Assembly (NCBI RefSeq): GCF_016903815.1
Contig: NZ_CP069974.1
DNA length: 64,000 bases
Reading direction: 5' to 3' (one strand)
Source of the DNA: Escherichia coli
GTDB lineage: Bacteria > Pseudomonadota > Gammaproteobacteria > Enterobacterales > Enterobacteriaceae
Program-made: the position numbers and the translations under genes
The notes under the pieces: generated by a model
What the model was told of the DNA's origin: nothing
Database searches by the model: none
What the model saw: only the letters and a program-made list of their open reading frames with translations
In this document: one piece after another, positions 37,192 through 61,183 of the stretch
How positions within the stretch are numbered: position 1 is the stretch's first letter
Layout of the letters: the number at the start of each line of letters is the position of its first letter

Positions 37192-37423
37192 CCGGCAGAC
37201 AGAACAACACTGCAGTAGTCAGAATCAGAGCAGCAGATAAAGGAACAACAACATCAGGAACAGTTCCATAACATAAGAAAGAAACACTCCTGAGTCAGAC
37301 ACATCACAGACGGGAAGGGTAACGGGCGACGCGCCAGCGTGGCCCGCTTCCCTTCCGGCAGGCGTCAGCCTGCCAGGGGTTTTCGCGCGGACTGACAGGC
37401 GGCCTCCACCGCCTGCCCCTGTA

Positions 37424-37615
37424 TCACCTGTTTCTGCTACCCTGTAAGATGTAGTGACCGCCCAGGAAAACCGCCTGCTGATTCGCCACAAAATCGCAGA
37501 TTTCATCAACAATCTGCGCGGTGGTGAGCGGTTTCTGCCCCATTTCACGACGCCGCGCATTAATCACGGCCCTGTAATTACGCAGAATTTCGCGGGTTTC
37601 TGTGCTGATATTCAT
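37424..37615 (-). CDS. hypothetical 63-aa protein
   Basis: The ATG overlaps the stop of the upstream DUF1380 gene (ATGA). Function not recognised. Confidence 0.45.
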   Translation of the reverse strand: MNISTETREILRNYRAVINARRREMGQKPLTTAQIVDEICDFVANQQAVFLGGHYILQGSRNR

Positions 37616-38034
37616 GACATCGTCTCCCCGTCCAGCGCCTGTAACACAACGTCCATTGCTTCGCGTTCCTCCCTGACGAATGCGTCACCGTCGCCCCCGT
37701 TCTCACTCCCGACGGCATACAGGCGCTTCATTTCACTGCCTGCCAGCGCCATCACTTTTTCCAGCATCACCGCCGGGACTGTCACCTGACGGCTGGCGCG
37801 CTTTTCTTCCATCAGTTCACGAACAACGCCGTGAACAACGCTGACATCCGCACCATATTCAAAGGCATCGTCCAGCCGCTGCATGACGGTTTCCAGCTCA
37901 TCGTCTGTCAGACTCCAGTCCTGGGCTATGTGACGCACATCCCCACGGGTCAGCACTACGGCAAAAACGCATTCACTGTCCGGCACGTCTGTATCCAGCA
38001 CTTCGCGGATAATTTCTTTAACAGTACAGTACAT
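37612..38034 (-). CDS. DUF1380-like protein (140 aa)
   Basis: MYCTVKEIIREVLDTDVPDSECVFAVVLTRGDVRHIAQDW.... Paralogous in layout to 39750-40184 (both contain ...RQVTVPA..L...). Confidence 0.55.
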   Translation of the reverse strand: MYCTVKEIIREVLDTDVPDSECVFAVVLTRGDVRHIAQDWSLTDDELETVMQRLDDAFEYGADVSVVHGVVRELMEEKRASRQVTVPAVMLEKVMALAGSEMKRLYAVGSENGGDGDAFVREEREAMDVVLQALDGETMS

Positions 38035-38080
38035 GTTCTCGTCTCCTTTACAGGGGCGGCATTGCCGCCCCGTCCGTTAA

Positions 38081-38506
38081 TCAGTCCAGAGCCGCGTAAA
38101 TCGCGTTGCATTCGGGGTGAAATTCGATGTGACGCCACAACTGCGCATCGCGCATCCGGTAAAGCTGGGTCAGTCCTGCATCCCCGCTGTCGTGGTACAG
38201 CCACAACTGGCGGTTAATCACAAGGGAGGTCAGGATGATGCCTGCGGCATCAGCACTCACGGTACGGTCAAACCAGTTTGCACCGTTCACCATGTGGAAA
38301 CGGTCGCCATCCGGCATCATGTAACCGCCACCGTCCGGCAGGCGGATGAAGTGCCAGAAGCCTCCCTGATATTCCGGCATCATTTTTTGCGCCAGCGCGT
38401 ACACATACGCCTCGGCATACAGAAAATCGTTGCCAAACAGATACGGCAGAAAGGAGAGACGGTCGCACTCTTCAACATTCAGAGTGACAGGTTTCGCATA
38501 TTGCAT
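38081..38506 (-). CDS. klcA: KlcA/ArdB-family antirestriction protein
   Basis: 141 aa [65 protein letters not shown].... Confidence 0.85.
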
Positions 38507-38548
38507 GATGTTTTCCTCCGTTGTTCACATATTCCGCGACACCGGGCG

Positions 38549-38774
38549 GTGCCGTGCCTCCATAAAAGCCGGGCGAACAGGCGGGGATGCAGGGGCGCAA
38601 GGGAAGCCGCAGCCTGACGCACACGGCTGACGGGAGTTGCAGGGTGAGACCGCGAAATCTGAGCGGGTGAACGACCGGAAAATCACGGCAGACGGGAAGG
38701 AGGGACCGGGTGACCGCAGCGGCGAAGCGTACCCTTGCATCAACGCCAGCCCGGCTAAGATGGAGGCACGGCAC
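38549..38774 (-). promoter_or_regulatory. Frpo-like single-strand promoter hairpin B1 upstream of klcA
   Basis: 15-bp perfect basal stem GTGCCGTGCCTCCAT / ATGGAGGCACGGCAC. The 3' arm carries TTGCAT (38735-38740), N15, then TAAGAT (38756-38761). AAG of the -10 faces AAA on the 5' arm, giving a 3-nt bubble. The base lies about 45 nt from the klcA ATG. Confidence 0.55.
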
Positions 38775-38922
38775 AGCCCGCACACGACGCTGAGGCCACA
38801 TAACTGAAAAACCACAAGGCCATGCCCTGCATGGCCGGGTAAAGCGGAGCCGGCGGCGACTTCCTTTGTGCTCTGTCCGGGGACCGGCAGGAAAAAGGCG
38901 GGGATTTACCCCGCCAGTGTCA

Positions 38923-40419: not shown

Positions 40420-41103
40420 TTACGCAGCCTCCGGCATAAACCAGTCATCATTCGCGGCCCCCTGCTGCATGGCCCGTTGCACGGCGGCAAGGCGTTGCTG
40501 CCCGGCACGGTGATACTGCTCAAGCAGCTCGATACCGATATACCGGCGTCCGGACTGGAGGGCGGCGACGCAGGTTGAGCCGCTGCCTGCAAACGGGTCC
40601 AGCACAATTGCGTTCGGGTGTGTGAAGCTCTCAATCAGCGGTTGCAGGCTGGTAACGGGCTTTTCCGTCGGGTGATGACGATTGCCAGAATATTTCCAGC
40701 CCAGCACGTCCGGCAGCGGGTTTTGTGGCAGACGTGGACGGCCTTTTGCCAGGATGTAGGCGCATTCGTGGCGATAGCCCACATATGCGGCCTTCGATGT
40801 GTAGTTTTTGGTGAAGACCAGGTGACCAACAACGCTGAATCCCGCATTTTTCCAGGCGGCCATAAAGCGATCGACGCGGTTCCAGCCGTAGAAGCTCACC
40901 ATCAGCGCGTCTTTTTTGAGTACGCGGTACATTTCATTACAGGCCGGTTGCAGCCATTCATCGGTTTTATCGCCGGCGATGGTGCGCCCGGAACGGTCAC
41001 GAAAACCGACGAGATATGGCGGGTCAGTTAATATGAAATCAATGGCGTTATCAGGGATACGCGTCATAACATCGATGCAGTTACCAAGGACAAAACGGGA
41101 CAT
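40420..41103 (-). CDS. orphan DNA methyltransferase (beta-class N6A/N4C, DPPY)
   Basis: 227 aa with motif IV ILTDPPYL early and motif I VLDPFAGSGSTCVAA late. No cognate endonuclease is present. Confidence 0.85.
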   Translation of the reverse strand: MSRFVLGNCIDVMTRIPDNAIDFILTDPPYLVGFRDRSGRTIAGDKTDEWLQPACNEMYRVLKKDALMVSFYGWNRVDRFMAAWKNAGFSVVGHLVFTKNYTSKAAYVGYRHECAYILAKGRPRLPQNPLPDVLGWKYSGNRHHPTEKPVTSLQPLIESFTHPNAIVLDPFAGSGSTCVAALQSGRRYIGIELLEQYHRAGQQRLAAVQRAMQQGAANDDWFMPEAA

Positions 41104-41487
41104 AACAACGCTCCTTCTCTTACAGAGGGCACCGGGAGGGCCCCCCTGTGGTGCCCGTTCCCCGCTGCCTGTGGGCTGTTCACCGCGTCCGGTAACGGGT
41201 CAGGCCGACCGTGGAATATCGCAGCCGTCGTCTTTTTGACGGCGAGAATATGCCGCGAAAGCGGCTTGAAGGGCGTTCATCAGAAAAGGGCGACAGGCTG
41301 GCGTACACTGTCACCGGTGCCAGCCGGGAGCAGTAAAAGCGCCCGTCCCGTGCCCGCCGGACGCGGGACACTGACCACAGGCAGCGTTCCTGCCGCGCCG
41401 CGTCAGCCGGCGCAGTAAAAAGAGGAGCACGGCGACATCCTTTGTCGGAAAAGAAACGGGCGGTTGCCCGCCCGTCTCCGTCATACT

Positions 41488-43256: not shown

Positions 43257-44228
43257 TCAGGGTGCTGGCTTTTCAAGTTCCTTAAGAATGGCCTCAATTT
43301 TCTCTATACACTCAGTTGGAACACGAGACCTGTCCAGGTTAAGCACCATTTTATCGCCCTTATACAATACTGTCGCTCCAGGAGCAAACTGATGTCGTGA
43401 GCTTAAACTAGTTCTTGATGCAGATGACGTTTTAAGCACAGAAGTTAAAAGAGTGATAACTTCTTCAGCTTCAAATATCACCCCAGCTTTTTTCTGCTCA
43501 TGAAGGTTAGATGCCTGCTGCTTAAGTAATTCCTCTTTATCTGTAAAGGCTTTTTGAAGTGCATCACCTGACCGGGCAGATAGTTCACCGGGGTGAGAAA
43601 AAAGAGCAACAACTGATTTAGGCAATTTGGCTGTGTTGATACAGCGGGTAATAATCTTACGTGAAATATTTTCCGCATCAGCCAGCGCAGAAATATTTCC
43701 AGCAAATTCATTCTGCAATCGGCTTGCATAACGCTGACCACGTTCATAAGCACTTGTTGGGCGATAATCGTTACCCAATCTGGATAATGCAGCCATCTGC
43801 TCATCATCCAGCTCGCCAACCAGAACACGATAATCACTTTCGGTAAGTGCAGCAGCTTTACGACGGCGACTCCCATCGGCAATTTCTATGACACCAGATA
43901 CTCTTCGACCGAACGCCGGTGTCTGTTGACCAGTCAGTAGAAAAGAAGGGATGAGATCATCCAGTGAGTCCTCAGTAAGCAGCTCCTGGTCACGTTCATT
44001 ACCTGACCATACCCGAGAGGTCTTCTCAACACTATCACCCCGGAGCACTTCAAGAGTAAACTTCACATCCCGACCACATACAGGCAAAGTAATGGCATTA
44101 CCGCGAGCCATTACTCCTACGCGCGCAATTAACGAATCCACCATCGGGGCAGCTGGTGTCGATAACGAAGTATCTCCAACCGGTTGAGTATTGAGCGTAT
44201 GTTTTGGAATAACAGGCGCACGCTTCAT
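43257..44228 (-). CDS. sopB: SopB (ParB-type partition protein)
   Basis: 323 aa [57 protein letters not shown].... Confidence 0.95.
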
Positions 44229-45732: not shown

Positions 45733-45980
45733 TGTGATAATCAACCCTCATCAATGATGACGAACTAACCCCCGATATCAGGTCACATGACGAAGGGAAA
45801 GAGAAGGAAATCAACTGTGACAAACTGCCCTCAAATTTGGCTTCCTTAAAAATTACAGTTCAAAAAGTATGAGAAAATCCATGCAGGCTGAAGGAAACAG
45901 CAAAACTGTGACAAATTACCCTCAGTAGGTCAGAACAAATGTGACGAACCACCCTCAAATCTGTGACAGATAACCCTCAG
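45733..45980 (+). repeat. incC: incC: five RepE 19-bp iterons
   Basis: TGTGA(C/T)A...CCCTCA units begin at 45733, 45816, 45907, 45940 and 45962. Confidence 0.85.
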
Positions 45981-45981
45981 A

Positions 45982-47050
<1,069 letters not shown>

Positions 47051-47102
47051 AGTTTTTTCAGGCATCGTGTGTAAGCAGAATATATAAGTGCTGTTCCCTG
47101 GT

Positions 47103-47160
47103 GCTTCCTCGCTCACTCGAGGGCTTCGCCCTGTCGCTCGACTGCGGCGAGCACTACTGG
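47103..47160 (+). other. candidate primosome assembly (n'-pas/ssi) sequence
   Basis: GCTTCCTCGCTCACTCGAGGGCTTCGCCCTGTCGCTCGACTGCGGCGAGCACTACTGG is an inverted partner of 45561-45617. Confidence 0.35.
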
Positions 47161-47510
47161 CTGTAAAAGGACAGACCACATCATGGTGCTGTGTTCATTA
47201 GGTTGTTCTGTCCATTGCTGACATAATCCGCTCCACTTCAACGTAACACCGCACGAAGATTTCTATTGTTCCTGAAGGCATATTCAAATCGTTTTCGTTA
47301 CCGCTTGCAGGCATCATGACAGAACACTACTTCCTATAAACGCTACACAGGCTCCTGAGATTAATAATGCGGATCTCTACGATAATGGGAGATTTTCCCG
47401 ACTGTTTCGTTCGCTTCTCAGTGGATAACAGCCAGCTTCTCTGTTTAACAGACAAAAACAGCATATCCACTCAGTTCCACATTTCCATATAAAGGCCAAG
47501 GCATTTATTC

Positions 47511-48317
47511 TCAGGATAATTGTTTCAGCATCGCAACCGCATCAGACTCCGGCATCGCAAACTGCACCCGGTGCCGGGCAGCCACATCCAGCGCAAAAAC
47601 CTTCGTGTAGACTTCCGTTGAACTGATGGACTTATGTCCCATCAGGCTTTGCAGAACTTTCAGCGGTATACCGGCATACAGCATGTGCATCGCATAGGAA
47701 TGGCGGAACGTATGTGGTGTGACCGGAACAGAGAACGTCACACCGTCAGCAGCAGCGGCGGCAACCGCCTCCCCAATCCAGGTCCTGACCGTTCTGTCCG
47801 TCACTTCCCAGATCCGCGCTTTCTCTGTCCTTCCTGTGCGACGGTTACGCCGCTCCATGGGTATTTTCAGTGTTGCCACCATCGTCTGCAGCTGGCTGAC
47901 GTACCAGGAGTCAGAGAGCGGAACCAGCCGGTGAGTCTGCTGACCGGCGGGCATTCTCCCCGCCGTCCTGGCAGCTTTTTCGGTCCGTTGTTTCAGGGTC
48001 GCAAGCTGCACAAACGGATACGGAGGCGCAAGCGAAAAATCCCCCCGCGTCAGCGCCAGTGCTTCATTAATGCGTGCTCCGGTGTTCCACAGTGTGGCCA
48101 GCAGCATCTTGCGGTGCAGATCCGGGACGTAATGGAGCAGGGCACTCACTTCCGGAGCCAGCAGATATTTTGGCAGTTCATCATGGACCATCGACATCTG
48201 GCGAAGTGCCAGAGCTGCCGGATAATCAATGGCAACAGGCAGCGATGCAGGCTGCCCGGCAGAATACACTGCCGGTACCATGACTGCAGACTGGCTGTGT
48301 ATAACGGAGCCTGACAT
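47511..48317 (-). CDS. resD: ResD tyrosine site-specific recombinase (F D protein)
   Basis: 268 aa with the C-terminal catalytic region ...HTFRHSYAMHMLYAGIPLKVLQSLMGHKSISSTEVYTKV. Confidence 0.9.
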   Translation of the reverse strand: MSGSVIHSQSAVMVPAVYSAGQPASLPVAIDYPAALALRQMSMVHDELPKYLLAPEVSALLHYVPDLHRKMLLATLWNTGARINEALALTRGDFSLAPPYPFVQLATLKQRTEKAARTAGRMPAGQQTHRLVPLSDSWYVSQLQTMVATLKIPMERRNRRTGRTEKARIWEVTDRTVRTWIGEAVAAAAADGVTFSVPVTPHTFRHSYAMHMLYAGIPLKVLQSLMGHKSISSTEVYTKVFALDVAARHRVQFAMPESDAVAMLKQLS

Positions 48318-48843
<526 letters not shown>

Positions 48844-49234
48844 AGCACACCTCTTTTTGACATACTTCGGGTATACATATCAGTATATATTCTTATGCCG
48901 CAAAAATCAGCGCGCAAATACGCATACTGCTATCTGGCTTTTAGTAAGCCTTATGTATTTTACCTTTCGTTATGTTAACCAATAAAAATTAAAATCTGAC
49001 TTATAAAAACAAAGCGTAATTACCGCATTCCCGTTTCGTATGGATCCGACTTTATTTGAATAAACGACTTTCCGGAAGTGTACAACGCTGAGAAAATCAT
49101 CATATCGCTGTTTTCCGCCCCTGCACGGCGCATCACAGGTCAGGGAAATAACACAACATATAGTGTCATCAGCAGCTGAATCCGGCACCACATGTTGTGC
49201 TTACAGGAAGTGGCGTTGTGTGGGGGGGAGAGGA

Positions 49235-49281
49235 AGATCCGTAACTGCCGGAAACCGGATCTCAGAAGAGAAAAAGAAGAG
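49235..49281 (+). repeat. hairpin-plus-polypurine junction repeat, copy 1
   Basis: AGATCCG-N14-CGGATCT (49235-49262), then the purine run AGAAGAGAAAAAGAAGAG (49264-49281). Another purine run (GGGGGGGAGAGGAAG) lies just upstream. Confidence 0.7.
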
Positions 49282-49476
49282 TTGTTGCAAGATAAGCACA
49301 AAAAATGGTGGTTTGTTGAGATATGGTAATTATTGCTCAGTGGGCAAAATTCAGAACAGAGTTAGCCTGAAATTGCAAAAAACAGGCCAGAAAAACTTTT
49401 TTCAGCTCATTTTCATCAACCGGCCTTAAAGGCTGCTTCGGATTTCCTAAATACAGTTTTACATAAGGAACATCGT

Positions 49477-49974: not shown

Positions 49975-51108
49975 TCAGGATTGCGACACACTTTGTACAC
50001 GATGGGCAAGACGGCGCGTTTCTTCCACGGCCCTGAGTTCATTTGCTTTTTCTATCATTTCTGCGGTTGGTTCAGAAAGTTTTTCAAAAAACTCCTTAAA
50101 CCTCTTTGCAACTGACTGCAGAGAAACACTGTCAGTTCTCGCTGTTTTAAGATTGGTGTAGACGAGGCGGGAAAGGGGTTTGGTCAGTTCCTTCCGTTCC
50201 ATGTATCGTTTGAAGATCCAGAGATAAATATCAACCAGTTCCAGCCCGGCACTCATCGTTCCCGACTGGAAGACAAGCGGTTTTGCTGGCATGTTCTTCA
50301 TATCCATGACAGGCAAACCCGGCCCCAGTGCCCACGGCTGTTCGCGGATCTGGTAGTAAAACTCGTTCAACTCCCGCTGGGTGGTGTTGAACTGTGACTG
50401 CTGGTCAACAATGATATCTGCTTTCCGGTTCGGTGCCCCCAGACGAGAGCAGATCCCGTGCAAAACGGACTGAAAACCAATCATATTGGGCATGATCTGC
50501 AACTTTTCCTTATTGGTTTTGCAGTTGTACCCCAGCTCATCAAAGTTGACCATCGCCCAAGATAGGGCATCGGTAATGAGTTCAACTGAACGGGCATCAC
50601 CCAGAGAGTGAACGCGCTGAAGCAGCACTCCACAAACCTCACTGAATAATGAGCAAGAACGTTCATCATGAGCCTCAAGACGGGCACGCCACGCTTTTTC
50701 AGCCAGCTCATCATCAAACAGATTAGACAGATTCAGCAGCAGGGGATAGCGCAGAGGGGTCCAGTAGGCACTCCAGGGCACAACCGGATTCAGTCCCTGA
50801 TCAAACACCTGGTCGAAGAACGAAATAATGGCGTGATCGCGCTTAACCACCTGCCAGATATCAAACCGTATCCGGTGATTTTTCTGCAGGACCAGCAGCG
50901 TATCCACAACTTCTGAAAGGCGGTGCACGCCCAGTTCCGCAGCGTGCAGGCGCTCCACGCCCAGAGTTTTGCGTAATGCGGCAAGATCCGCTTCAGCAAC
51001 CTTATCTAGGTCAGCCTCTGAGGACAGTACTCCGTAGGAGAGGATTGGCTGGGTTTTGTCAAAAAGGTTTCGGCCAGTCTGGCCTGTTTCATCCACATAA
51101 AAGTGCAT
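49975..51108 (-). CDS. DUF3800-like protein (377 aa)
   Basis: The N-terminus MHFYVDETGQTG matches the [FY]xDE[ST]G signature recalled for DUF3800. The rest is not recognised. Confidence 0.55.
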   Translation of the reverse strand: MHFYVDETGQTGRNLFDKTQPILSYGVLSSEADLDKVAEADLAALRKTLGVERLHAAELGVHRLSEVVDTLLVLQKNHRIRFDIWQVVKRDHAIISFFDQVFDQGLNPVVPWSAYWTPLRYPLLLNLSNLFDDELAEKAWRARLEAHDERSCSLFSEVCGVLLQRVHSLGDARSVELITDALSWAMVNFDELGYNCKTNKEKLQIMPNMIGFQSVLHGICSRLGAPNRKADIIVDQQSQFNTTQRELNEFYYQIREQPWALGPGLPVMDMKNMPAKPLVFQSGTMSAGLELVDIYLWIFKRYMERKELTKPLSRLVYTNLKTARTDSVSLQSVAKRFKEFFEKLSEPTAEMIEKANELRAVEETRRLAHRVQSVSQS

Positions 51109-51190
51109 TCAGATATCCTTTTCAAGGCAGGAGGAAAAGAAACGGCATAATTCAAATCAATGTAAAACCTTCCTGTTGCCGGCTGCAAGT

Positions 51191-51236
51191 GATCCTCTTA
51201 AATGAGTTTTCGGATCTAAGGAAGAGAGAAGAGGGA
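51191..51236 (+). repeat. hairpin-plus-polypurine junction repeat, copy 2
   Basis: GATCC-N16-GGATC (51191-51216), then AAGGAAGAGAGAAGAGGGA (51218-51236). The next approx. 40 nt resemble those after copy 1 (TTRTTGYA.GA...GCACAAAAA). Confidence 0.7.
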
Positions 51237-51370
51237 TTATTGTATGAATGGCACAAAAAGCGACGGATTGTTGCGGTGAATAGATTATTGCTTAGGAAGC
51301 AAAATTTATAGTAATTGATAACTCTAATGCAATTAAACAGCGACCCCATCAGGGGTCACCGTAATTTTGA

Positions 51371-54300
51371 TCAGCGATGTTCAAACCGCGCCACTGGAGT
51401 ATCAGTGATTTCCATCTCTATTTCCCAGAGCGTTTTCATCACACCTTCAAGTGGATCGTCGCTGCTGCGGTAGAAGGTATTGAAAAGGGTTCCATCCGGA
51501 TACCTGAACAGCCTGAGTTCACCAAAGGATTCAGCACTGACCATAAGCGAAAACTCCTGTTCGGAATTGAGGACAAGGTAAATAAGACAGTTATTGATCC
51601 TGAAGGGCAGAGAGCGGCTACCCCTGGCCGATACATCAACATGTATGCTAAACGCGTCATGCCTTTCCGGCTGATAGACCAGTTCCCTCAGTTCCTCGCT
51701 GAAGCGGGAACCATAGATCACCAGAATGTAGTTATTCTGATCAGCGGACCGTTGCGCGACTTCCATTAACAGCGTTTCGAGGTTATTGACCTCAATCGTT
51801 AATTTAGCCTGTGACTGCCACAGTACATAATGCAGTCTGCGGAGAATATTTCTGTTCACTTCTGATACCGAAGGGAAATCTCCGTAGTCAGTCTGATTAA
51901 GCTCTCTGGCAACATACTCTTTGGAAACACCAACAGGAATATATATCGCCAGCCAGTTGCGATCACATTCTGAATTTTGAGTAAACGTGAAGTATTTAAG
52001 CAGAACATCTTCAGACAATGCCCCAGGAAGTTCATTTGTAAGACGAGCATCAGTGTTTCTCAGTCGAGCCTGGTCTACTTCAGCAGCAACGATATCTGCC
52101 GTTTTACTACGACTGAATACATCTATGTATTTATCCAGAACATCATTAAAGAACACCACATTCGTTGCATAATCCGCTTCTGAAATGATATAACCTTCAT
52201 AGGGAACTGAAGGGTCTCGTTTCAGTCGTTTAAGAATAGAAATTATTCTGTCTTTACTGGAATAGGAAAACACCCCTCCAGCCAGGGCTTCATTAACACG
52301 CTGTGTAACCTGCTCCGCAGGCCTTGCGAGCTTTATAGCCAGCAAGGCAAACGCCCCGTAGAGACTCCCTAAATCTTCATATTCCCCTGTATACATACGC
52401 CCGGGAATGTAAGGCCTTTCATTATATGAGTTCATAACCTCAATGGTTTCTGATAACCCGCTGTACCAGCTTGTATTCGTATGCAGATTGCAGTGCTCAA
52501 TTCTCAGTATCATGTCAATGATATCGACAGAACGTCTGAATGCAGGCGTCAGCGTGTCATGTGTATCTCTATCTTCATATAATTCAGACATAATGAGATG
52601 ATTCACAAGATCGGCTAAGTCTATATTTTTTTGCGATTCAAAATGAGCAATAAGATACCCTGCCATTAACAACCGCAAATCGGATAAGGCATTTGCAAAC
52701 ATAATGGACAAAGCGGCATCTTTTTTATACTTGCTGCCCCTGAGTAACATATTCCACTGCGGTTCTGTCTCCTTCAGGGACAGATAATCCGGAGTCAGGA
52801 AGAAACTGTGCCAGCGGTACTCTTCCTCCCAGTAACGTGTAAACCGGCTCTGATTAAACCAGAGGCAGAGAACGTCGTGAGCATATCGCACGGAAGAGGC
52901 ATTATCGGCAACCACTGACGGAATAAGAAGCCTGGCGGTATTATGCAGATGATACATCAGGCGGCCAGTAGAATCTTCACTCCCGGGTTTGCCAGTGATC
53001 GTGGTCATACTCCAGCCTTCCCACAGTCCGATATACCCGCGGATAAGGGCCTGGTGAGTCAGCTCCTGGCTGGCCGAGAGGGGGCCCCCCAGTCCCGCTT
53101 TCCACTCGTTTAACACATGCCACACCCTGAAAAGCGAGAGTAAAAACTGTCTGAAATCGGTAAAACACGTGCTCTGTGTTTTTCTGTACACACGCAATGG
53201 AATGAGCATCGATTCACGGAAATATTCGCCTGAATATTCCGTTGATTTTACGGATTCACGAAAAAACTTTCTCAATTCATAATGGAATGAATCGCTGAAA
53301 GTATGGCTAAAACCTGATTCTTTTACTTCATCCAGATAATTTTTATCGACCTCGTAATTGTAACTTCTTTTGATAGAGGTATAGGTATCTGTTAATCGTT
53401 CAATCCCTGTTCTGAAGACGCTAATATTTTTATCGTTAAGCGCATCGTAAGCCTCACCAAAGAAATCAAAAGTAATATCATCCAGATCCCTTTTGTTCTC
53501 AGGGCGCCCTGTTACAATACAACGACGCAATAACCACCGCCACAATCCTGAAACAGGCTTGACATTTCTCGATGACAATAAAGTCAGTTCACCAGAACGA
53601 ACACCAAAGGAGGGCAGAATGATAATTTCCGCATCCTGCCCATCTACCGCCTCTAGCCTTCTCAGTAGGAATAAAAAAGGCCTTATATAAATATCAGTAA
53701 CAACATCACCTTTACTGATATTAGATTTAACATGAAGCATATCGTCTTTCTCAGAAATTGAGTAAGGCAGTATTTTAATATTACCGAGGTAATTTTGACC
53801 TACATGACCCCCCGGGTAACGCAGCCACGCCTGAATATATGCTTTTTGAATGTAGTCATCCACTATCTGAGATAAAAAAAACTTATTCATTAGTCGATCG
53901 CGTTTGCTCTCATCCAGGACATTCAGACTGGAGACGAAGAACCAGATAGACAGAATAATATTGAAAAGCATCCACACAAAAGCTGTTACGGCAAAAGAAG
54001 TATTAAGATATCCGTCACCTATAGATAACGTCATACCGCCCAGCACGACAAATGCAGCCAGTGAAAGACCACTCAGGCCCGCAAACATATATCCGGAATG
54101 AAGTTGATACGCGGACTGAATATGGATCCTTGCTGATTTCTTTTGAAATAAAACACTTATAAGCCCCACAACCAGCGGAAATACAATACCGATTATAGTC
54201 AACTGGCTACCCAGTAAATTAGACATCCAATCTGAAAGCTTGGTAATGCCCTTAAAATGCTGCACAGCGAAAGGTAGCAATACAGGGCGAAAATATTCGA

Positions 54301-54490
54301 CCACGCCAACAGCCCCGAAGGCTGCGGACCATAGAACCAGCATAGCCCGGACGTAATGGGTGGAGCAGGAAACAAGTATTCTCTCCACCGGGTTCCAGCG
54401 AAGTTTTTTGTAATCCCGGTTCGACTTCAGGCTCCGTCGGAGTTCAGCTCTCACCTGCCATGAGACACTTTTCAGAAGTTTTCCAAACAT
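51371..54490 (-). CDS. large membrane-anchored protein of unknown function (1039 aa)
   Basis: About five hydrophobic helices in the first approx. 190 residues, followed by an approx. 850-aa soluble region with no motif I recognise. AT-rich codon usage. Hairpin GTGACCCCTGATGGGGTCGC follows the stop. Confidence 0.7.
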   Translation of the reverse strand: MFGKLLKSVSWQVRAELRRSLKSNRDYKKLRWNPVERILVSCSTHYVRAMLVLWSAAFGAVGVVEYFRPVLLPFAVQHFKGITKLSDWMSNLLGSQLTIIGIVFPLVVGLISVLFQKKSARIHIQSAYQLHSGYMFAGLSGLSLAAFVVLGGMTLSIGDGYLNTSFAVTAFVWMLFNIILSIWFFVSSLNVLDESKRDRLMNKFFLSQIVDDYIQKAYIQAWLRYPGGHVGQNYLGNIKILPYSISEKDDMLHVKSNISKGDVVTDIYIRPFLFLLRRLEAVDGQDAEIIILPSFGVRSGELTLLSSRNVKPVSGLWRWLLRRCIVTGRPENKRDLDDITFDFFGEAYDALNDKNISVFRTGIERLTDTYTSIKRSYNYEVDKNYLDEVKESGFSHTFSDSFHYELRKFFRESVKSTEYSGEYFRESMLIPLRVYRKTQSTCFTDFRQFLLSLFRVWHVLNEWKAGLGGPLSASQELTHQALIRGYIGLWEGWSMTTITGKPGSEDSTGRLMYHLHNTARLLIPSVVADNASSVRYAHDVLCLWFNQSRFTRYWEEEYRWHSFFLTPDYLSLKETEPQWNMLLRGSKYKKDAALSIMFANALSDLRLLMAGYLIAHFESQKNIDLADLVNHLIMSELYEDRDTHDTLTPAFRRSVDIIDMILRIEHCNLHTNTSWYSGLSETIEVMNSYNERPYIPGRMYTGEYEDLGSLYGAFALLAIKLARPAEQVTQRVNEALAGGVFSYSSKDRIISILKRLKRDPSVPYEGYIISEADYATNVVFFNDVLDKYIDVFSRSKTADIVAAEVDQARLRNTDARLTNELPGALSEDVLLKYFTFTQNSECDRNWLAIYIPVGVSKEYVARELNQTDYGDFPSVSEVNRNILRRLHYVLWQSQAKLTIEVNNLETLLMEVAQRSADQNNYILVIYGSRFSEELRELVYQPERHDAFSIHVDVSARGSRSLPFRINNCLIYLVLNSEQEFSLMVSAESFGELRLFRYPDGTLFNTFYRSSDDPLEGVMKTLWEIEMEITDTPVARFEHR

Positions 54491-54600
54491 AGATATCCTG
54501 CGTATTACATAAGAAATTTTATGAATAATAAGCGGTAGGAACCTTTTTTTCTCTGGAAAATGTCACCCGATACCCTTCATACAGGCTTTGTCATCCTAAA

Positions 54601-54652
54601 ATCCGGTTTAACCTTTTTTCGGATCTCCGATAAAAAAGAAAGAAATAGAGAT
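54601..54652 (+). repeat. hairpin-plus-polypurine junction repeat, copy 3
   Basis: ATCCG-N14-CGGAT (54601-54624) overlaps the palindrome TTTTTTCGGATCTCCGATAAAAAA, then the A/G-rich run AAAAAGAAAGAAATAGAG. Confidence 0.6.
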
Positions 54653-54796
54653 ATGCATAAACATATGCCTGGCATCTACATATGCTACCGCTATACATAT
54701 GCCACACATCTGCCTATACTAAACATATGCACACACCCGGTGCTTTGAATATTCCGGATATGTTTCACATATCCATATGCTCGGGAGAGAAAGAAC

Positions 54797-55027
54797 ATGA
54801 GAACCGTATCGATATTTAAAAATGGCAACAACCGCGCCATCCGTCTGCCTCGTGATCTGGATTTTGAGGGGGTGAGCGAGCTCGAGATCGTCCGGGAAGG
54901 GGACAGCATCATCCTGCGCCCCGTCCGGCCAACCTGGGGATCATTCCTAGAGTACGAAAAAGCCGATCCAGATTTTATGGCGGAGCGCGAGGATGTTGTC
55001 AGCGACGAAGGGCGATTTAACCTGTGA
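54797..55027 (+). CDS. vapB: VapB/VagC antitoxin (AbrB/SpoVT fold)
   Basis: 76 aa MRTVSIFKNGNNRAIRLPRDLDFEGVSELEIVREGDSIILRPV.... Confidence 0.9.
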   Translation: MRTVSIFKNGNNRAIRLPRDLDFEGVSELEIVREGDSIILRPVRPTWGSFLEYEKADPDFMAEREDVVSDEGRFNL

Positions 55028-55440
55028 ACAAGACTTATATGCTTGATACCTGTATCTGCTCGTTCATCATGCGTGAACAGCCAGAAGCCGTCCTGAAGCG
55101 TCTGGAGCAGGCGGTGCTACGCGGCCACCGTATAGTGGTCTCGGCCATCACCTACTCTGAAATGCGCTTCGGGGCTACCGGCCCAAAGGCCTCACCACGT
55201 CACGTCCAACTGGTCGATGAATTCTGCGCCCGCCTCGATGCCATCCTGCCCTGGGATCGCGCCGCAGTAGACGCCACCACGAAGATTAAAGTGGCACTGC
55301 GGCTGGCCGGGACGCCGATCGGCCCGAACGACACGGCGATTGCCGGGCACGCCATCGCCGCCGGGGCGATACTGGTAACGAATAATACAAGAGAATTTGA
55401 GCGAGTGCCTGACCTGGTGCTGGAAGACTGGGTGAAGTAA
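55024..55440 (+). CDS. vapC: VapC/VagD PIN-domain toxin
   Basis: 138 aa (GTG start overlapping the vapB stop) ...YMLDTCICSFIMRE...TNNTREFERVPDL with PIN acidic residues. Confidence 0.9.
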   Translation: MNKTYMLDTCICSFIMREQPEAVLKRLEQAVLRGHRIVVSAITYSEMRFGATGPKASPRHVQLVDEFCARLDAILPWDRAAVDATTKIKVALRLAGTPIGPNDTAIAGHAIAAGAILVTNNTREFERVPDLVLEDWVK

Positions 55441-55477
55441 GACACTCTTTTCAAAGTCAGGAGATAAGGGCACCAAG

Positions 55478-55502
55478 AAACAGCCCGTATACGGGCTGTT
55501 TT
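55478..55502. terminator. bidirectional intrinsic terminator
   Basis: AAACAGCCCGTATACGGGCTGTTTT lies between the convergent vapC and the ATPase gene. Confidence 0.8.
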
Positions 55503-55601
55503 AACAGATATCTACAGTAAGCGGTCCTAAACTGTAGGGTATCTTCGAAGATCAGACTATCAGGGAGCTAAAGCCTATCTTCCGGCGGCAAAAACAGTGG
55601 C

Positions 55602-57740
55602 TCAAGCGATACGGGCAACCGAGCTCTGGTTTGCTGCCGGTGGCAGGGCGATGAGCTTGTCACATTCCATAATCACGTACTCCGGGATGAGATCGAATCT
55701 GGACGGATCTAGTTGACAGATGAACTCATTTTCAATGTGGTACGTTTCGTTAACGAATTTTCGTATTACCGGATGGTCCTGATCCAGTTCCAGTAAACGG
55801 AATACCTGCAGTTTTTCATAGCCGTTACGACAGCGACGGTACAGGTTTTTTATTTCATCTGGGCTGCTGACGAGAGCCTGAAGTCGCGGGTAATCAAAAC
55901 TGTCCACATACTCCCGGATATCCCGCAAGGCCTGCTGAATTTTCTCAGGAGCCATTTTGGGATAGCCCGAGCCCGCAGCGGCAGGCTCGCGATAATCCAG
56001 CGGGGCGACGCGTCGATGGAATAGATTGGATAGAAGCTGATAAGCATCACCACGTTCGTCAACGATTTCAAAGTAGCGACGAAGATAGATGAGCTTAATG
56101 ATCTCCTCACAGTCTGCTGACGCGGTGATGGATTTGCAGATCTGCATGAATGTCATGATATCGCCGTCGTTAACAGGTAATTCTTCTATGACTCCAGCAG
56201 ACAGGCGCAGGCAGGAGGCGGTCACCTGATTACTGAACAACCTTCTGACTGACTTCAGCGTGTCAATCACAGGCTCCACGTCATGCGTCAGCATAAGTAC
56301 AGTCCGGTTCTTCAGGCATTCACCACTTGCACGTCTGAACAGCATTTCAAGAATGGCAAACTTCTTGTTTTTATCAAAAGAAGATATGGGATCATCAAGG
56401 ATAATCAGTCCCGGGTTTTTTGACAGGCATTCATACATGAATAACACAATCGCAAAGGCGTTCCGTTCTCCATAGCTGAGATGCTGGCTACCGCCGCTGA
56501 CGTACCCGTCAAAATCTATGTGTCGTAGCCTGAGTTTTCTCTGCTCTCCCTCGCCGGCTATATCCACCCTGTATTTATAGCCTGCATAAGTGAGGAAATT
56601 ATTGATGTTTGTTTTGTGCTGTGCGATCAGCCGGATCATGCTGTCCCGGTGCCGGTTAATTTTTCCCTGCAGCGGTCCGGCAAGGTTTATCAGGTCCATA
56701 AGGGCCGCGTTCAGTCTGTCGGTGATCCCCTGCATGAGTTCGGATTGCAGATCAGGGAAGAACTGCAGGTCAATCAACCTGGCAGTGAGCACCTCCCGAA
56801 CGTTCTGCTGTTCCTGCAGGCTGAAAACATTCAGGCCTCTCAGCGCAGTGAGTTTCTCTGTCAGCGTATCGGTCTGGCGTTTCAACGCCACTAGGTACTC
56901 GATATGTTCGGCTTCCGGACCGTTCTGAAGCATAGTAATGGCCAGAAGGCGTTCTCTGGCGCTCTCCGTCAGGTAATTACCGAGGTTTTCCACCAGTCTG
57001 ATGATAGCGGTCAGGTTTTTAATGGTGGATTTATCGTATTCCTCTCTGACTTGGCGAATTTGTGCTTCCTTTCCCGTGATATCACCGGTACAGAACGGAC
57101 AGCAGCCATCCGAAAGGGGCGAAAACTCGAGTCCCTTTGTCTGCCAGTCAATCCATTCCACGCGGCGTTCACTGCGGATGTAGGGTTGATAGTTCTCAAG
57201 ACCAGCCGGAATGTGGTGTATTTTATTTCCGCCTGACAGACCTCTCATGCCGGTTGAAGAACGTGAAATCCCGGAACTGGTTGATTTGAAAGCATTACTG
57301 AGTTCCTGTAGATGGTCTATCAGAGAGTTCAGCTCAGTGTGATCCGTGAAAACAGCCCGGATCTTTTGCGTCATTTCTTCTATTTCACGCTCTCTTTCCG
57401 CATGGGCTTGATTGCGGATAAGAATATTAAAGCTGTCACTGATGAGCTCGTCCGGTTGGAACGTAAACTGACTGACGTACTCCTCGTTGAAGCACATCAC
57501 GTCCCCAATCCCGTCAGCACCGATGACAATGGGCCCGGTGCTATCGGGGTTTTCTCCGCGCAGCCGGAAGGGCATCAGTGCCTGTAGTCCCTGAATGTCG
57601 TCCCGCGCCGCACAGCTTATGGCCCGTGACAGCGTACTTTTTCCAGTACCATTTGGCGCAAACTTAATGTTCAGTTTATCGGCAGTGAGGGTGATATGTG
57701 CTCGTACGATGTTATTGCAGTGGCGTATTTCAATGTCCAT
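55602..57740 (-). CDS. AAA_13/RloC-like ABC-type ATPase with coiled-coil zinc hook (712 aa)
   Basis: Walker A APNGTGKST, signature LSYGERNA, Walker B LIILDDP and H-loop LTHD are split by a long helical insert containing CCPFC. The approx. 170-aa C-terminal domain is of unknown function. Confidence 0.7.
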   Translation of the reverse strand: MDIEIRHCNNIVRAHITLTADKLNIKFAPNGTGKSTLSRAISCAARDDIQGLQALMPFRLRGENPDSTGPIVIGADGIGDVMCFNEEYVSQFTFQPDELISDSFNILIRNQAHAEREREIEEMTQKIRAVFTDHTELNSLIDHLQELSNAFKSTSSGISRSSTGMRGLSGGNKIHHIPAGLENYQPYIRSERRVEWIDWQTKGLEFSPLSDGCCPFCTGDITGKEAQIRQVREEYDKSTIKNLTAIIRLVENLGNYLTESARERLLAITMLQNGPEAEHIEYLVALKRQTDTLTEKLTALRGLNVFSLQEQQNVREVLTARLIDLQFFPDLQSELMQGITDRLNAALMDLINLAGPLQGKINRHRDSMIRLIAQHKTNINNFLTYAGYKYRVDIAGEGEQRKLRLRHIDFDGYVSGGSQHLSYGERNAFAIVLFMYECLSKNPGLIILDDPISSFDKNKKFAILEMLFRRASGECLKNRTVLMLTHDVEPVIDTLKSVRRLFSNQVTASCLRLSAGVIEELPVNDGDIMTFMQICKSITASADCEEIIKLIYLRRYFEIVDERGDAYQLLSNLFHRRVAPLDYREPAAAGSGYPKMAPEKIQQALRDIREYVDSFDYPRLQALVSSPDEIKNLYRRCRNGYEKLQVFRLLELDQDHPVIRKFVNETYHIENEFICQLDPSRFDLIPEYVIMECDKLIALPPAANQSSVARIA

Positions 57741-57888
57741 TTATCTGTCCTTTGCCAGTTATTCCGGGGGGATTCATATCCTGCCGCAAAATGTGCCCGC
57801 ATGCTGTGATGCAGATACATAATACATTTCGTTTATACCATTGCTTACACCTCTCCGAGATGTTCATATCAGAAACAAAGATTAGGTC

Positions 57889-57934
57889 GATCCGACTTTT
57901 ACTTTTTTCGGATCTCTGGAGAGGGGAAGAAGGA
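57889..57934 (+). repeat. hairpin-plus-polypurine junction repeat, copy 4
   Basis: GATCCGA-N12-TCGGATC (57889-57914), then GGAGAGGGGAAGAAGGA (57918-57934). Confidence 0.7.
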
Positions 57935-58204
57935 TTTGTGCTGATGATGCAATACTAATGATATATTTTGAACTTAATTGCATTATTGCTTATCTGGCAT
58001 TAATAACTGAAATACTTTGCATAATTATCAATGAAAGAACGAGGCTCATATTTCCCATGTAAATTATATGCCCTTGCAGAGAGCGAGACGGTAGTGAACT
58101 TGCGGCACTAATAATAAACTGTACCGACTCTTCCCGGGCACTGGAATGTTCAGATGTACGACAGAGCCCCGCGCCTTTTGCAATAAATAATTAAAGGACT
58201 GAAC

Positions 58205-59200
58205 ATGGCGACCACAGTAATAGCTGCCTTTAACGAATTTATGAAAGATACCGTGAATCTCAAAAAGGCAGATACCGATGACGCGCGTGCAAGTCGCGAC
58301 TGGCTTATCGGTAAGATGAATGATTTTGAGAAGGACGATAAATTTCCGGTGAGTTTTCCAGCGATCCATATTGCCTTTGGCTCCTTTGCCAGAAGAACCA
58401 AAATCCGTCCGCTTGATGATATCGATCTGATGTTTGGCTTAACCGGGCAAGGTGCCACCTATACCATCCTGAGTGACCGGATAACTGTAACCTCCTCCGG
58501 AGAGGGGTCACGTCTGCACAGTTACCGCCATTCCGGAGCTGACACCGTCTGCTCCGTCAGAATTCTGAATGCCTTTAAAAACCGCCTGCAGGACATTGCC
58601 CAGTACGCCCAGGCTGATATCAGGCGTAACCAGGAAGCTGTCACGCTGAAACTGGTCAGCAAGGACTGGAATTTTGACATCGTCCCCTGCTTTATTACCA
58701 GCGAAGATGCCTTTGGACGGACTTACTACCTGATCCCCGATGGCAACGGCCACTGGAAGTTTACCGACCCCCGTAAAGACAGGGACAGAGTCACTACTAT
58801 CAATGTGCAGAATAACGGCAATGTGCTCAATGTCATCAGAGCAGTCAAATACTGGCAGCGGCGACCGACGATGCCATCCATGAGTTCCTACCTGCTGGAA
58901 ACGCTGATTCTGGACTATTACGCTGGCAGGACATCCTGCTCATCGTTTGTTGACATGGAGCTGGAAGCGCTTTTCCGCCACCTTGGTCAATCCGTGCGGT
59001 ACTCTGTCAACGATCCCAAAGGCATACAGGGTGATATCAACTCACTTTCAGCCGAGGCACGTAAGGCGATATCGGACAGATGTTATCTCGATGCGCAAAA
59101 GGTATCGGAGGCGAGATGGTTTGAAAATAATAAAGAGTATGAAAAATCCATCAATAAATGGCGCGATGTGTTCGGGCCATTCTTTCCTGTTTACGGGTGA
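58205..59200 (+). CDS. SMODS/CD-NTase-like nucleotidyltransferase (CBASS cyclase)
   Basis: 331 aa with the pol-beta NTase signature FGSFARRTKIRPLDDIDLMF and third carboxylate NFDIVPCF. Confidence 0.75.
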   Translation: MATTVIAAFNEFMKDTVNLKKADTDDARASRDWLIGKMNDFEKDDKFPVSFPAIHIAFGSFARRTKIRPLDDIDLMFGLTGQGATYTILSDRITVTSSGEGSRLHSYRHSGADTVCSVRILNAFKNRLQDIAQYAQADIRRNQEAVTLKLVSKDWNFDIVPCFITSEDAFGRTYYLIPDGNGHWKFTDPRKDRDRVTTINVQNNGNVLNVIRAVKYWQRRPTMPSMSSYLLETLILDYYAGRTSCSSFVDMELEALFRHLGQSVRYSVNDPKGIQGDINSLSAEARKAISDRCYLDAQKVSEARWFENNKEYEKSINKWRDVFGPFFPVYG

Positions 59201-59203
59201 ATC

Positions 59204-60136
59204 ATGAATGCCATTTACACAAACCAGTCGACCAGAGAAAACATGGATTTACTGTATGCGCAGGCCCGTGTCTACGACAGGGTAAAAAACTGGAACAGAC
59301 TGAATTTTCTCTTCAGCATCATCGTACCGCTCCTGCTTTCTTTCGTTACCGTATACAACCGGAGCCGGGAATTTGTCGATTCAGAGTTGTTGTCTTCGCT
59401 GTTGGGGTTATATGGACTCCTGGTGCTTACCTTTAACATTGTTATCAGTGGACACATCTCGGCTCTGCGCAGGAAGGCAGCCTCAATCCAGGAAATGTAC
59501 GACTGCCGGGTACTTGGCATCCGGCGTAATGAACTGAAGGTGGAGGAGATCCCACGGGATGACATCATCCGGGAAGCTGCATATTTTAGAGACAGCCCGG
59601 AAAAAGCACGAAAGCGATTTGGCGAAGAGGGGTGGTACGTCAGTAAGGTGTATGACGCGCCGCAGGCCGTAATGGCGCTCCTTTGCCACGGAAAAAATCT
59701 CGGCTGGGACAAATCGCTCAGGGAGGTTCTGCACGTATTTTATCTTTCCGCTTTTATTGTCTCGCCTGTCGCGATGCTTGTTTACGGCATCGTCATGAAA
59801 TCCGGGCTGAATGAGATCCTCTTCTATGTGGTGTTCACACTGCCGGTCATCCGCTATTTCTTGCTTCAGTTTCTGGATAATCGCAGCAGTATGAAAAGAA
59901 GCGAGAAGCTGAAAAAGTACGTTGAGAAGGAATTATCCGGCATAAGGGTGTCCGGAAGGGCAGAAGAAGAGCAACTGGCTTATACGCTCCGGAATATCCA
60001 AGATGAGATGTTTACCTACCGGGCCTCATGTCCGCCCGTACCCAACGGTATTCAGCTGATAATGAAGCCCAAAAATGAACGAATTTATGTTGATTACTTT
60101 GAAACAAATCTGAAGGAGCTGCACCTTCAGAAGTAA
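59204..60136 (+). CDS. four-TM effector (S-4TM-like) of the CBASS operon
   Basis: 310 aa starting 4 nt after the cyclase stop. Two pairs of hydrophobic helices (about 33-51 and 62-85; 185-208 and 214-233) are separated by a soluble segment. Confidence 0.65.
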   Translation: MNAIYTNQSTRENMDLLYAQARVYDRVKNWNRLNFLFSIIVPLLLSFVTVYNRSREFVDSELLSSLLGLYGLLVLTFNIVISGHISALRRKAASIQEMYDCRVLGIRRNELKVEEIPRDDIIREAAYFRDSPEKARKRFGEEGWYVSKVYDAPQAVMALLCHGKNLGWDKSLREVLHVFYLSAFIVSPVAMLVYGIVMKSGLNEILFYVVFTLPVIRYFLLQFLDNRSSMKRSEKLKKYVEKELSGIRVSGRAEEEQLAYTLRNIQDEMFTYRASCPPVPNGIQLIMKPKNERIYVDYFETNLKELHLQK

Positions 60137-60272
60137 TCCCTCCTTAGCTCCGGTGTAGGATTTACGTATGCCGGAGCACATCCGATAAACAATTCTTGGT
60201 TGCCTGAGTGTCAGCGTAAACCCATAGTCACCTTCGCCTCAGACGGTTAGTAACACAGGTAATGACTCCAAC

Positions 60273-60776
60273 TTACTGATAGTGTTTTATGTTCAGATAA
60301 TGCCCGATGACTTTGTCATGCAGCTCCACCGATTTTGAGAACGACAGCGACTTCCGTCCCAGCCGTGCCAGGTGCTGCCTCAGATTCAGGTTATGCCGCT
60401 CAATTCGCTGAGTGTAACGCTTGCTGATTACGTGCAGCTTTCCTTTCAGGCGGGATTCATACAGCGGCCAGCCATCCGTCATCCATATCACCACGTCAAA
60501 GGGTGACAGCAGGCTCATAAGACGCCCCAGCGTCGCCATAGTGCGTTCACCGAATACGTGCGCAACAACCGTCTTCCGGAGCCTGTCATACGCGTAAAAC
60601 AGCCAGCGCTGGCGCGATTTAGCCCCGACGTATCCCCACTGTTCGTCCATTTCCGCGCAGACGATGACGTCACTGCCCGGCTGTATGCGCGAGGTTACCG
60701 ACTGCAGCCTGAGTTTTTTAAGTGACGTAAAATCGTGTTGAGGCCAACGCCCATAATGCGGGCTGTTGCCCGGCAT
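60273..60776 (-). CDS. insB: IS1 InsB
   Basis: 167 aa ...[58 protein letters not shown].... Confidence 0.92.
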
Positions 60777-60970
60777 CCAACGCCATTCATGGCCATATCA
60801 ATGATTTTCTGGTGCGTACCGGGTTGAGAAGCGGTGTAAGTGAACTGCAGTTGCCATGTTTTACGGCAGTGAGAGCAGAGATAGCGCTGATGTCCGGCAG
60901 TGCTTTTGCCGTTACGCACCACCCCGTCAGTAGCTGAACAGGAGGGACAGCTGATAGAAACAGAAGCCAC
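60695..60970 (-). CDS. insA: IS1 InsA
   Basis: 91 aa [88 protein letters not shown]. Confidence 0.92.
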
Positions 60971-61183
60971 AGGAGCACCTCAAAAACACCATCATACACT
61001 AAATCAGTAAGTTGGCAGCATCACCGGCATTCAAAATCATTATGGCCGCGATCTATTTCTGGCTGTTCTCTATCACTTTTGGCGGCATCGTCGCTCATGG
61101 GTAAGGGGAGTATATTAGCCATTTGGAACCCCACGGTCTCTTGCGGGTTTAATTAAGAACCCGCAAGAAAAACACGAATTGGG

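Follow-up and report, generated by a model that had tools for sequence, protein, structure and literature searches.

A predicted two-gene type I CBASS within a putative rfsF-bounded cassette on an F-like plasmid of Escherichia coli

The stretch of DNA analysed here (the window) comprises 64,000 nucleotides of contig NZ_CP069974.1 from an Escherichia coli assembly (GCF_016903815.1), and carries on its plus strand two adjacent, intact open reading frames (ORFs), one for a cyclase and one for a membrane effector. We put a probability of roughly 0.9 on this locus being a complete, intact type I system for anti-phage signalling based on cyclic oligonucleotides (CBASS) that would act by abortive infection and that lies within a cassette bounded by rfsF, the site of the plasmid recombinase ResD. 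The two genes are:

58205-59200, plus strand: CD-NTase (SMODS) cyclase, 331 aa, clade C/D-like, nearest CdnD; identical to RefSeq WP_000246636.1
59204-60136, plus strand: S-4TM effector, 310 aa, with two pairs of predicted transmembrane (TM) helices, four in total, and large conserved segments in the cytoplasm; the same protein as RefSeq WP_000991832.1

Classification follows the scheme of Millman et al. 2020 as used in a later survey (10.1101/2023.05.21.541620). The pair has the genes that the scheme asks for in type I: a SMODS gene with an intact GS...[DE]x[DE]...[DE] core, and next to it, in the same orientation, an effector of a CBASS class. The effector ATG lies 4 nt past the cyclase stop, a spacing given in the initial annotation of this DNA and reproduced by the ORF coordinates; the two genes are tightly translationally coupled. 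A Shine-Dalgarno sequence, AAAGGA, is found 7 nt ahead of the cyclase ATG.

The cyclase

The first protein belongs to the SMODS/CD-NTase family by both Pfam and PADLOC models, in agreement with the initial annotation, which had named a test by hidden Markov models as the check on its proposal of a SMODS cyclase. It scores 52 bits against Pfam SMODS PF18144 (cut-off 26.5) and 504 bits, end to end, against the PADLOC Cyclase model PDLC00802. The catalytic residues are G59-S60, D72-I-D74 and D158 within NFDIVPCF. All five (G59, S60, D72, D74 and D158) are invariant across 19 homologues, down to 52% identity, which include members from Clostridium, Ignavibacteria and Flavobacteriia. The motifs read by the initial annotation as GS-x10-DxD plus a downstream D are thus all present, with a spacing of x11, a trivial miscount. 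Hydropathy gives no TM segment in the cyclase.

Could the first protein instead be a non-signalling nucleotidyltransferase of the MNT/antitoxin or a similar type, and the pair a module resembling toxin-antitoxin (TA) systems? The pair does sit among addiction modules (ccdAB, vapBC, phd/doc), and two NCBIfam CBASS cyclase models fall under their cut-offs on this protein, the better one at 115 vs 200 bits. Against this, no MNT or NTP_transf_2 model of Pfam matches at E<0.1, and SMODS is the sole family at E<=0.1; the PADLOC cyclase match runs end to end, all solved relatives are CD-NTases, and the partner belongs to the SMODS-associated 4TM family. We consider a non-signalling enzyme highly improbable.

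Solved structures were searched with the single cyclase sequence and with a 19-member profile, and the matches are confined to CD-NTases of the C/D neighbourhood. The best solved relative is P. aeruginosa CdnD (PaCdnD, 6P82), at 2.5e-22 with the profile, followed by B. cereus CdnD (BcCdnD, 9SA4/5) at 2.5e-11 and E. cloacae CdnD at 7e-9; E. coli CdnC (6P80) matches the profile at 8e-10 over its N-terminal part only. The E. cloacae and Salmonella CdnD structures among the matches are 7LJL, 7D48 and 7LJM (the identities of 9SA4/5 and 7LJM are taken from PMC13424991). In the profile search no enzyme of clades A, B, E or G, in the clade scheme of Whiteley et al. 2019, appeared at E<=0.01. The cyclase would thus be placed in the C/D neighbourhood and closest to CdnD, with motifs that read LDDIDL and FDI vs the 'PDVDI' and 'LDL' of clade D.

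The GS...DxD...D core, the Lid 1 threonine (T187 in the cyclase) and the C-terminal helical domain all align with the clade C/D structures (6P82, 9SA4/5, 6P80, 7LJL/7D48 and 7LJM). Those enzymes, however, are found in systems of type II or III, which have nuclease effectors and Cap2/3 or HORMA/TRIP13, whereas the window pair is of type I. The HMMER alignment to PaCdnD spans residues 55-80 and 132-329 only. Residues 81-131 (window 58445-58597), which follow the DxD strand and precede the next block of the alignment, hold about 28 residues more than PaCdnD; this family-specific insertion could be related to activation.

The nucleotide signal

Rules that link residues to product have been published for clades C and D. 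Enzymes that make cAAA have S or T at the first position of the XGSX motif together with His at Lid 2, and those that make cAAG have a QGSI motif together with Gln at Lid 2 (PMC13424991). The window cyclase differs from the solved clade C/D enzymes at both positions, with F in place of S/T or Q and D in place of H or Q. Its motif is FGSF (F58) and its Lid 2 residue is D192, as placed by the HMMER alignment of TDPRKD with TDPEIH of PaCdnD. T187 is conserved, and both T187 and D192 are invariant in the cyclase family; F58 lies outside the conserved columns.

F58 and D192 match neither the cAAA nor the cAAG signature, and the signal of the cyclase is therefore not predictable from these rules. 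The statement of the initial annotation that the nucleotide signal cannot be read from the sequence holds for this reason. Clade membership would favour a cyclic trinucleotide as the best guess for the product, a guess in which our confidence is low. The cyclase is thus a widespread enzyme with specificity residues unlike those of any characterised clade C/D enzyme.

The effector

The second protein scores 160 bits against Pfam S_4TM (PF18159), with residues 2-293 on profile positions 1-282 of 291, and 548 bits over its full length against the PADLOC 4TM effector model PDLC00717. Scanned for hydropathy over 19 residues at a time, the protein shows four TM segments, paired at about 33-51 and 62-84 and at about 176-198 and 205-224. 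Two TM pairs of the S-4TM kind had been claimed from the letters alone; hydropathy and both family models agree with that claim, and TM helices are present on proper prediction.

Of the soluble segments, the N-terminal one has 5 Lys and Arg residues, the central one 18 and the C-terminal one 16, vs 2 and 1 in the two short loops. This distribution indicates an N-in/C-in topology, and therefore a cytoplasmic location for all the large soluble parts. Conservation peaks in soluble residues 150-173 (YDAPQAVMALLCHGKNLGWDKSLR) and is lower in TM1 and TM3; the conserved stretch would look like a cytoplasmic ligand-sensing module. The AlphaFold model of the effector is all-helical (pLDDT 78, pTM 0.73), with long hairpins at 11-55/60-104 and 171-197/202-250. 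No solved homologue of the S-4TM effector was found, either by sequence or by fold.

Completeness of the system and the IS1 junction

In the window the operon is followed by a copy of the insertion sequence IS1:

60137-60257, plus strand: trailer at the 3' end of the cassette; its last bases are GGTTAG, with which the 3' rfsF-like site begins, and then TAACACA, from alignment with L002-L004 (see below)
60258-61025, minus strand: IS1, 768 bp, with 23-bp terminal inverted repeats and insA/insB on the minus strand; replaces the rest of the 3' rfsF-like site

For comparison, six independent contexts were used in which the pair occurs free of IS1. They are an E. coli IncF plasmid (L002), a Salmonella Infantis pESI-like plasmid (L003), an IncI-gamma/K1 plasmid (L004), an Enterobacter IncFIB/FII plasmid (L010), K. 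michiganensis (L011) and a K. pneumoniae IncFII plasmid (L012). The pair is intact and adjacent in all six. Neither in these contexts nor in the window did Pfam and PADLOC scans or annotation reveal Cap2/Cap3, HORMA/TRIP13, type IV genes or CapW/CapH-CapP beside it. The genes that follow the pair on its 3' side vary among the six: regulator-like and PDC-S64-like ORFs, a TrlF/Ppl-like ATPase, SIR2 plus an ATPase, a RES toxin and an Abi protein. By its gene content, then, the pair is a genuine two-gene type I CBASS, and the type I architecture proposed initially extends from the window to the six relatives.

IS1 starts 121 nt past the effector stop, and no 9-bp target duplication surrounds it (AGTAACACA on the left vs GGCATTCAA on the right). 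Its flanks were probably not originally adjacent, because a target-site duplication is lacking. Homology with the relatives stops at 60250, +114 from the effector stop, and GGTTAG alone survives of the 3' rfsF-like site ahead of IS1. Judged by these alignments, IS1 landed in the natural 3' boundary of the cassette and left the genes untouched. Seven nucleotides, TAACACA (60251-60257), stand between the truncated site and IS1.

The operon might be seen as a crippled remnant, from which IS1 took a downstream partner or regulator, so that the system would be inactive or would once have been of a more complex type. IS1 does abut the operon, and the missing target-site duplication implies a deletion or IS1-IS1 recombination. 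The six IS1-less contexts, however, have different sequence 3' of the pair, none of it from a CBASS accessory family, and they diverge from each other only 11-28 nt beyond the point at which IS1 enters in the window. Both ORFs are moreover intact, and identical on hundreds of plasmids that share the same IS1 junction. A crippled remnant is accordingly very unlikely. IS1 removed no partner gene, as far as can be told from the 3' neighbours, since these differ from one IS1-less context to the next and none is a CBASS accessory family. Of the initial annotation's account of this side, the position of IS1 about 120 nt past the stop stood, and the suspicion of a lost partner gene did not. The 3' genes of the relatives were considered as lost accessory genes and rejected; they differ by context, and they match other defence candidates or nothing.

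Elsewhere, insertion sequences (IS1A, IS3, IS2) split the CBASS match in NZ_LS992186.1, NZ_OZ547615.1, NZ_CP072982.1 and CP125002.1. Such copies hint at occasional inactivation, perhaps from a cost of the system. Between IS1 and the 3' end of hsdR in the window are 158 nt (61026-61183) with a hairpin at 61138-61170; the CBASS cassette would have been joined to the restriction-modification operon by an IS1-mediated event.

rfsF-like sites at the boundaries of the cassette

A repeat search followed by an nhmmer profile revealed an element of about 80 nt at the 5' side of the pair and at three further places in the window; BLAST with one 86-nt copy gave only orthologues. In the element, a T-rich spacer of about 14 nt separates two inverted arms, GATCCG and CGGATC, and a purine-rich tail comes after them. 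The copies, the adjacent recombinase gene and the leader of the cassette are:

47511-48317, minus strand: ResD-type tyrosine recombinase, 268 aa (Pfam Phage_integrase, 6.8e-18)
49230-49309, plus strand: canonical rfsF-type site near oriV-1/ccdAB/resD, first of the array (nhmmer E=3.5e-13)
51183-51263, plus strand: rfsF-like site that parts the DUF3800 gene from the 1039-aa ORF (nhmmer E=3.2e-12; repeat families D1 and D3)
54595-54673, plus strand: rfsF-like site between the 1039-aa ORF and the unit of vapBC and the PDC-S06 ATPase (nhmmer E=5.6e-11)
57883-57962, plus strand: rfsF-like site, 5' boundary of the CBASS cassette (nhmmer E=1.6e-16)
57963-58204, plus strand: conserved AT-rich leader of the cassette, the presumed promoter carrier, kept with the genes in every context

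A strict pattern of the element has four matches in the window vs 0.03 expected by chance, and the profile has none in window 1-47000. All 23 profile matches are intergenic and in a single orientation, as checked manually against the annotation tables. In the 57883-57962 copy the arms lie at 57889-57914, with a spacer of 14 nt. A sigma-70 promoter scan of the plus strand upstream of the cyclase returned no high-scoring match, with counts equal to the shuffled expectation, and an Rfam scan detected no known RNA in or near the CBASS locus. The element was also considered as a structured RNA and rejected; its arms show sequence conservation but no covariation, and it would form a weak hairpin (a 6-7 bp stem with a 14-nt loop).

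The ends of the block that relatives share with the window coincide with these sites. Homology with all IS1-less relatives begins at 57899-57905, within the spacer of the 5' site. Breakpoints were taken from six contexts compared pair by pair, 15 comparisons in all. In 12 of these the block common to both contexts begins between −299 and −316 relative to the cyclase ATG, and the other three, which start at −563/−564, share the upstream unit too. At the other end the block stops between +114 and +142 from the effector stop in 14 of the 15, and at +170 in one. The five comparisons that involve the window all end at +114, just short of the IS1 truncation, and nine of the ten others stop within the 3' site, at +125 to +142. 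The cassette, about 2.36 kb in size, thus consists of the right half of the 5' site, the genes with their flanks, and the left half (GTTAGCATCCGGCTTT) of the 3' site. In every IS1-less enterobacterial context there are copies of the site on both sides of the pair, and more copies between the neighbouring units.

Positions in reference plasmids identify the element. In F and R64, across loci of 4.5-5 kb, the sole significant profile matches are at F nt 45,885-45,955 and R64 nt 43,583-43,652 (E~1e-9), with inverted-repeat cores that start at F 45,920 and R64 43,618. The rfsF site of R64 is at nt 43,620 (PMC8004404), and the rfsF-containing start of the RepFIA region of F is at nt 45,922, with the order rfsF, oriV-1, ccdAB, resD (PMC4398462). 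The window site at 49230-49309 occupies the position that this order predicts. Judged by position and sequence, the boundary element is rfsF, the ResD site. The resemblance to the rfsF-ResD system covers both partners: the sites are at the same positions in F (nt ~45,920) and R64 (nt ~43,620), and the adjacent recombinase is ResD. The F equivalent of the recombinase is at nt 46866-47672, after ccdAB; that of the window is 96% identical to the one beside the array in L003.

Defence and addiction units in a putative array

In the window the sites part, in order, ccdAB, the DUF3800 unit, the 1039-aa ORF, the unit of vapBC with the PDC-S06 ATPase, and the CBASS pair. The upstream neighbour of the pair is a divergent 712-aa ATPase (55602-57740), a PADLOC candidate defence protein (PDC-S06, 949 bits). 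R64 (nt 35673-38616) and L003 also have the conserved unit of vapBC and PDC-S06 (window 54797-57740), in each case with rfsF-like sites at its limits. In R64 the unit is bracketed by copies at 38,752 (nt 38752-38816, the orthologue of the window's 54595-54673 site) and, weaker, at 35,482 (to 35531). In F, rfsF and a second copy at nt 41,032-41,114 enclose the pif unit for T7 exclusion. Taken together, the units separated by the sites are pifCA, vapBC plus the PDC-S06 ATPase, DUF3800, the 1039-aa unknown, CBASS, SIR2 plus an ATPase, Abi and RES, and units parted by rfsF next to resD are found on IncF, IncI1, IncK-type, pESI-like and Klebsiella/Enterobacter F-type backbones.

The 712-aa AAA ATPase could in principle be a functional part of a three-gene system, as it is adjacent, divergent and itself a defence candidate. 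An rfsF-like site lies between it and the pair, however, and it travels with vapBC, in R64 without any CBASS. In L003 about 5 kb separate it from the pair, and it lies on the opposite side; in L002, L004 and L010-L012 the pair has no such neighbour. The ATPase was rejected as a component for want of synteny with the pair, and a three-gene system is highly improbable beside the two-gene type I CBASS.

We propose, as a tentative reading to which we give somewhat under even odds, that the CBASS pair is a mobile cassette in an integron-like array driven by ResD, in which units would be swapped by recombination within the spacer of the site. The junction expected upon excision of the cassette would be GTTAGCATCCGGCTTT running directly into TTTTTTCGGATCTCTGGAG. 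ResD might also, or alternatively, use the sites as operators. Integron cassettes include ones that carry anti-phage genes. The likeness to integron arrays (IntI/attC) lies in a terminal tyrosine recombinase, in units parted by imperfect-palindrome sites in one orientation, in the occurrence of the same unit in varied orders and neighbourhoods, and in half-sites at unit ends. The rfsF-like sites are, however, not attC, with arms of 6-7 bp, a spacer of about 14 nt and a purine-rich tail; the units hold one to three genes, in either orientation and with their own leaders, and ResD is not known to be an IntI-type integrase.

Switches of gene sets at rfsF, and homology that ends at rfsF, have already been noted (PMC8004404, PMC9412624). 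The rfsF-ResD system has been described with one or 'two rfsF sites' for dimer resolution, whereas plasmids of the window's kind have at least four copies between defence and TA units. No description of multi-site rfsF arrays of defence cassettes was found in the searchable literature, the coverage of which is incomplete. The cassette array is the only potentially novel element of the locus. If it is true, the 'dimer-resolution' system of F would double as a device for shuffling anti-phage genes. Defence genes could, as the cassette context suggests, pass between enterobacterial plasmids by a simple route, the action of ResD on multiple rfsF-like sites.

The 1039-aa ORF (51371-54490, minus strand) has no Pfam match and forms a unit of its own between two rfsF-like sites, flanked by the DUF3800 unit (49975-51108). 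Its position makes it a candidate uncharacterised defence gene.

A proposed mechanism

By analogy with its protein families, the system may work as follows. Phage infection would activate the CdnD-like CD-NTase, probably through a late cue from virion assembly. The activated cyclase would polymerise nucleoside triphosphates into a cyclic oligonucleotide, by clade most likely a cyclic trinucleotide. The S-4TM protein would sense the signal through its conserved cytoplasmic segments, and its two helical TM hairpins would then compromise the inner membrane, leading to death or arrest of the cell before phage release, that is, abortive infection. The pair would be carried as a discrete rfsF-bounded cassette in an array of defence and addiction units by resD, in which IS1 has replaced the 3' site.

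Prevalence and relation to known systems

The pair is already known, annotated and very common. RefSeq names its products 'SMODS domain-containing nucleotidyltransferase' and 'S-4TM family putative pore-forming effector'. Hundreds of IncF plasmids carry the 2.5-kb locus at 100% identity; 810 plasmid records, mostly of conjugative plasmids of Escherichia, Salmonella and Klebsiella, hold at least 80% of it, and both exact proteins are found on at least 1,000 contigs. Among 5,426 complete E. coli genomes, 634 have the locus (at least 80% coverage), and 1,028 of its 1,043 places in complete E. coli genomes are on plasmids.

Type I operons mostly combine cyclases of clades D, E or F with 2TM or 4TM effectors (10.1101/2023.05.21.541620). 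One of them, EcCdnD12-4TM from E. coli SLK172, restricted phages of five families at least 10^4-fold; its toxicity was abolished by a double-aspartate mutation, and no stimulated synthesis was seen with purified EcCdnD12 (Richmond-Buccola et al., 10.1101/2023.05.21.541620; Cell Host Microbe 2024). Phage protection that requires the active site of the cyclase is likewise reported for an E. coli CdnD-4TM operon. It resembles the window pair in species, two-gene layout, effector class and clade call; the window cyclase has no AGS-C fusion, and clade D type I enzymes without that fusion are described in the same study (10.1101/2023.05.21.541620). EcCdnD12-4TM differs in being a synthetic operon in pBAD vs the native IncF context here, and may be the same allele or a relative. 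That the two are the same operon is plausible but unproven. The string 'CdnD12' in another report (10.1101/2022.05.25.493364) denotes E. cloacae CdnD followed by the superscript reference number 12, and is irrelevant here.

The plasmid location raises the question of whether the pair is selected mainly for plasmid biology, through post-segregational killing, exclusion of competitors or stabilisation, instead of phage defence. The 1,028 plasmid-borne places are in keeping with this, as is the position of the pair between TA modules beside the multimer-resolution and replication region. The neighbours in the array, however, are mostly known or candidate anti-phage units (pifA in F and R64, type I restriction-modification, PDC-S06, SIR2 and Abi), and type I CBASS operons of the same architecture restrict phages when cloned alone (10.1101/2023.05.21.541620). 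No labile component of an antitoxin kind is evident. A role chiefly in plasmid biology is unlikely, if less so than the other alternatives weighed above, and we retain phage defence as the probable function of the CBASS pair.

By itself the CBASS locus matters little, being annotated, common and of the commonest type I architecture, with a similar system already tested against phages. Its carriage on epidemic IncF resistance plasmids, in about 1 in 9 complete E. coli genomes, makes the pair relevant to phage therapy.

Plasmid context and other features of the window

The window carries sopAB, repE, ccdAB and resD, and many E. coli plasmids with the typing IncFIA/FIB/FII, MOBF and MPF_F match a 24-kb part of it at 100% identity. 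The typing of these identical records, together with the four loci, bears out the F-like plasmid seen in the initial annotation. Downstream of the pair, IS1 is followed by a type I restriction-modification operon (hsdR).

Farther away, Rfam detects three identical copies of a group II intron on the plus strand, at ~17437-19735, ~29222-31520 and ~34893-37191, each of which holds a 555-aa ORF (17987-19654, 29772-31439 and 35443-37110). The minus strand holds a fourth intron domain, at ~25869-25989, and the intron load is unusually high for one plasmid segment.

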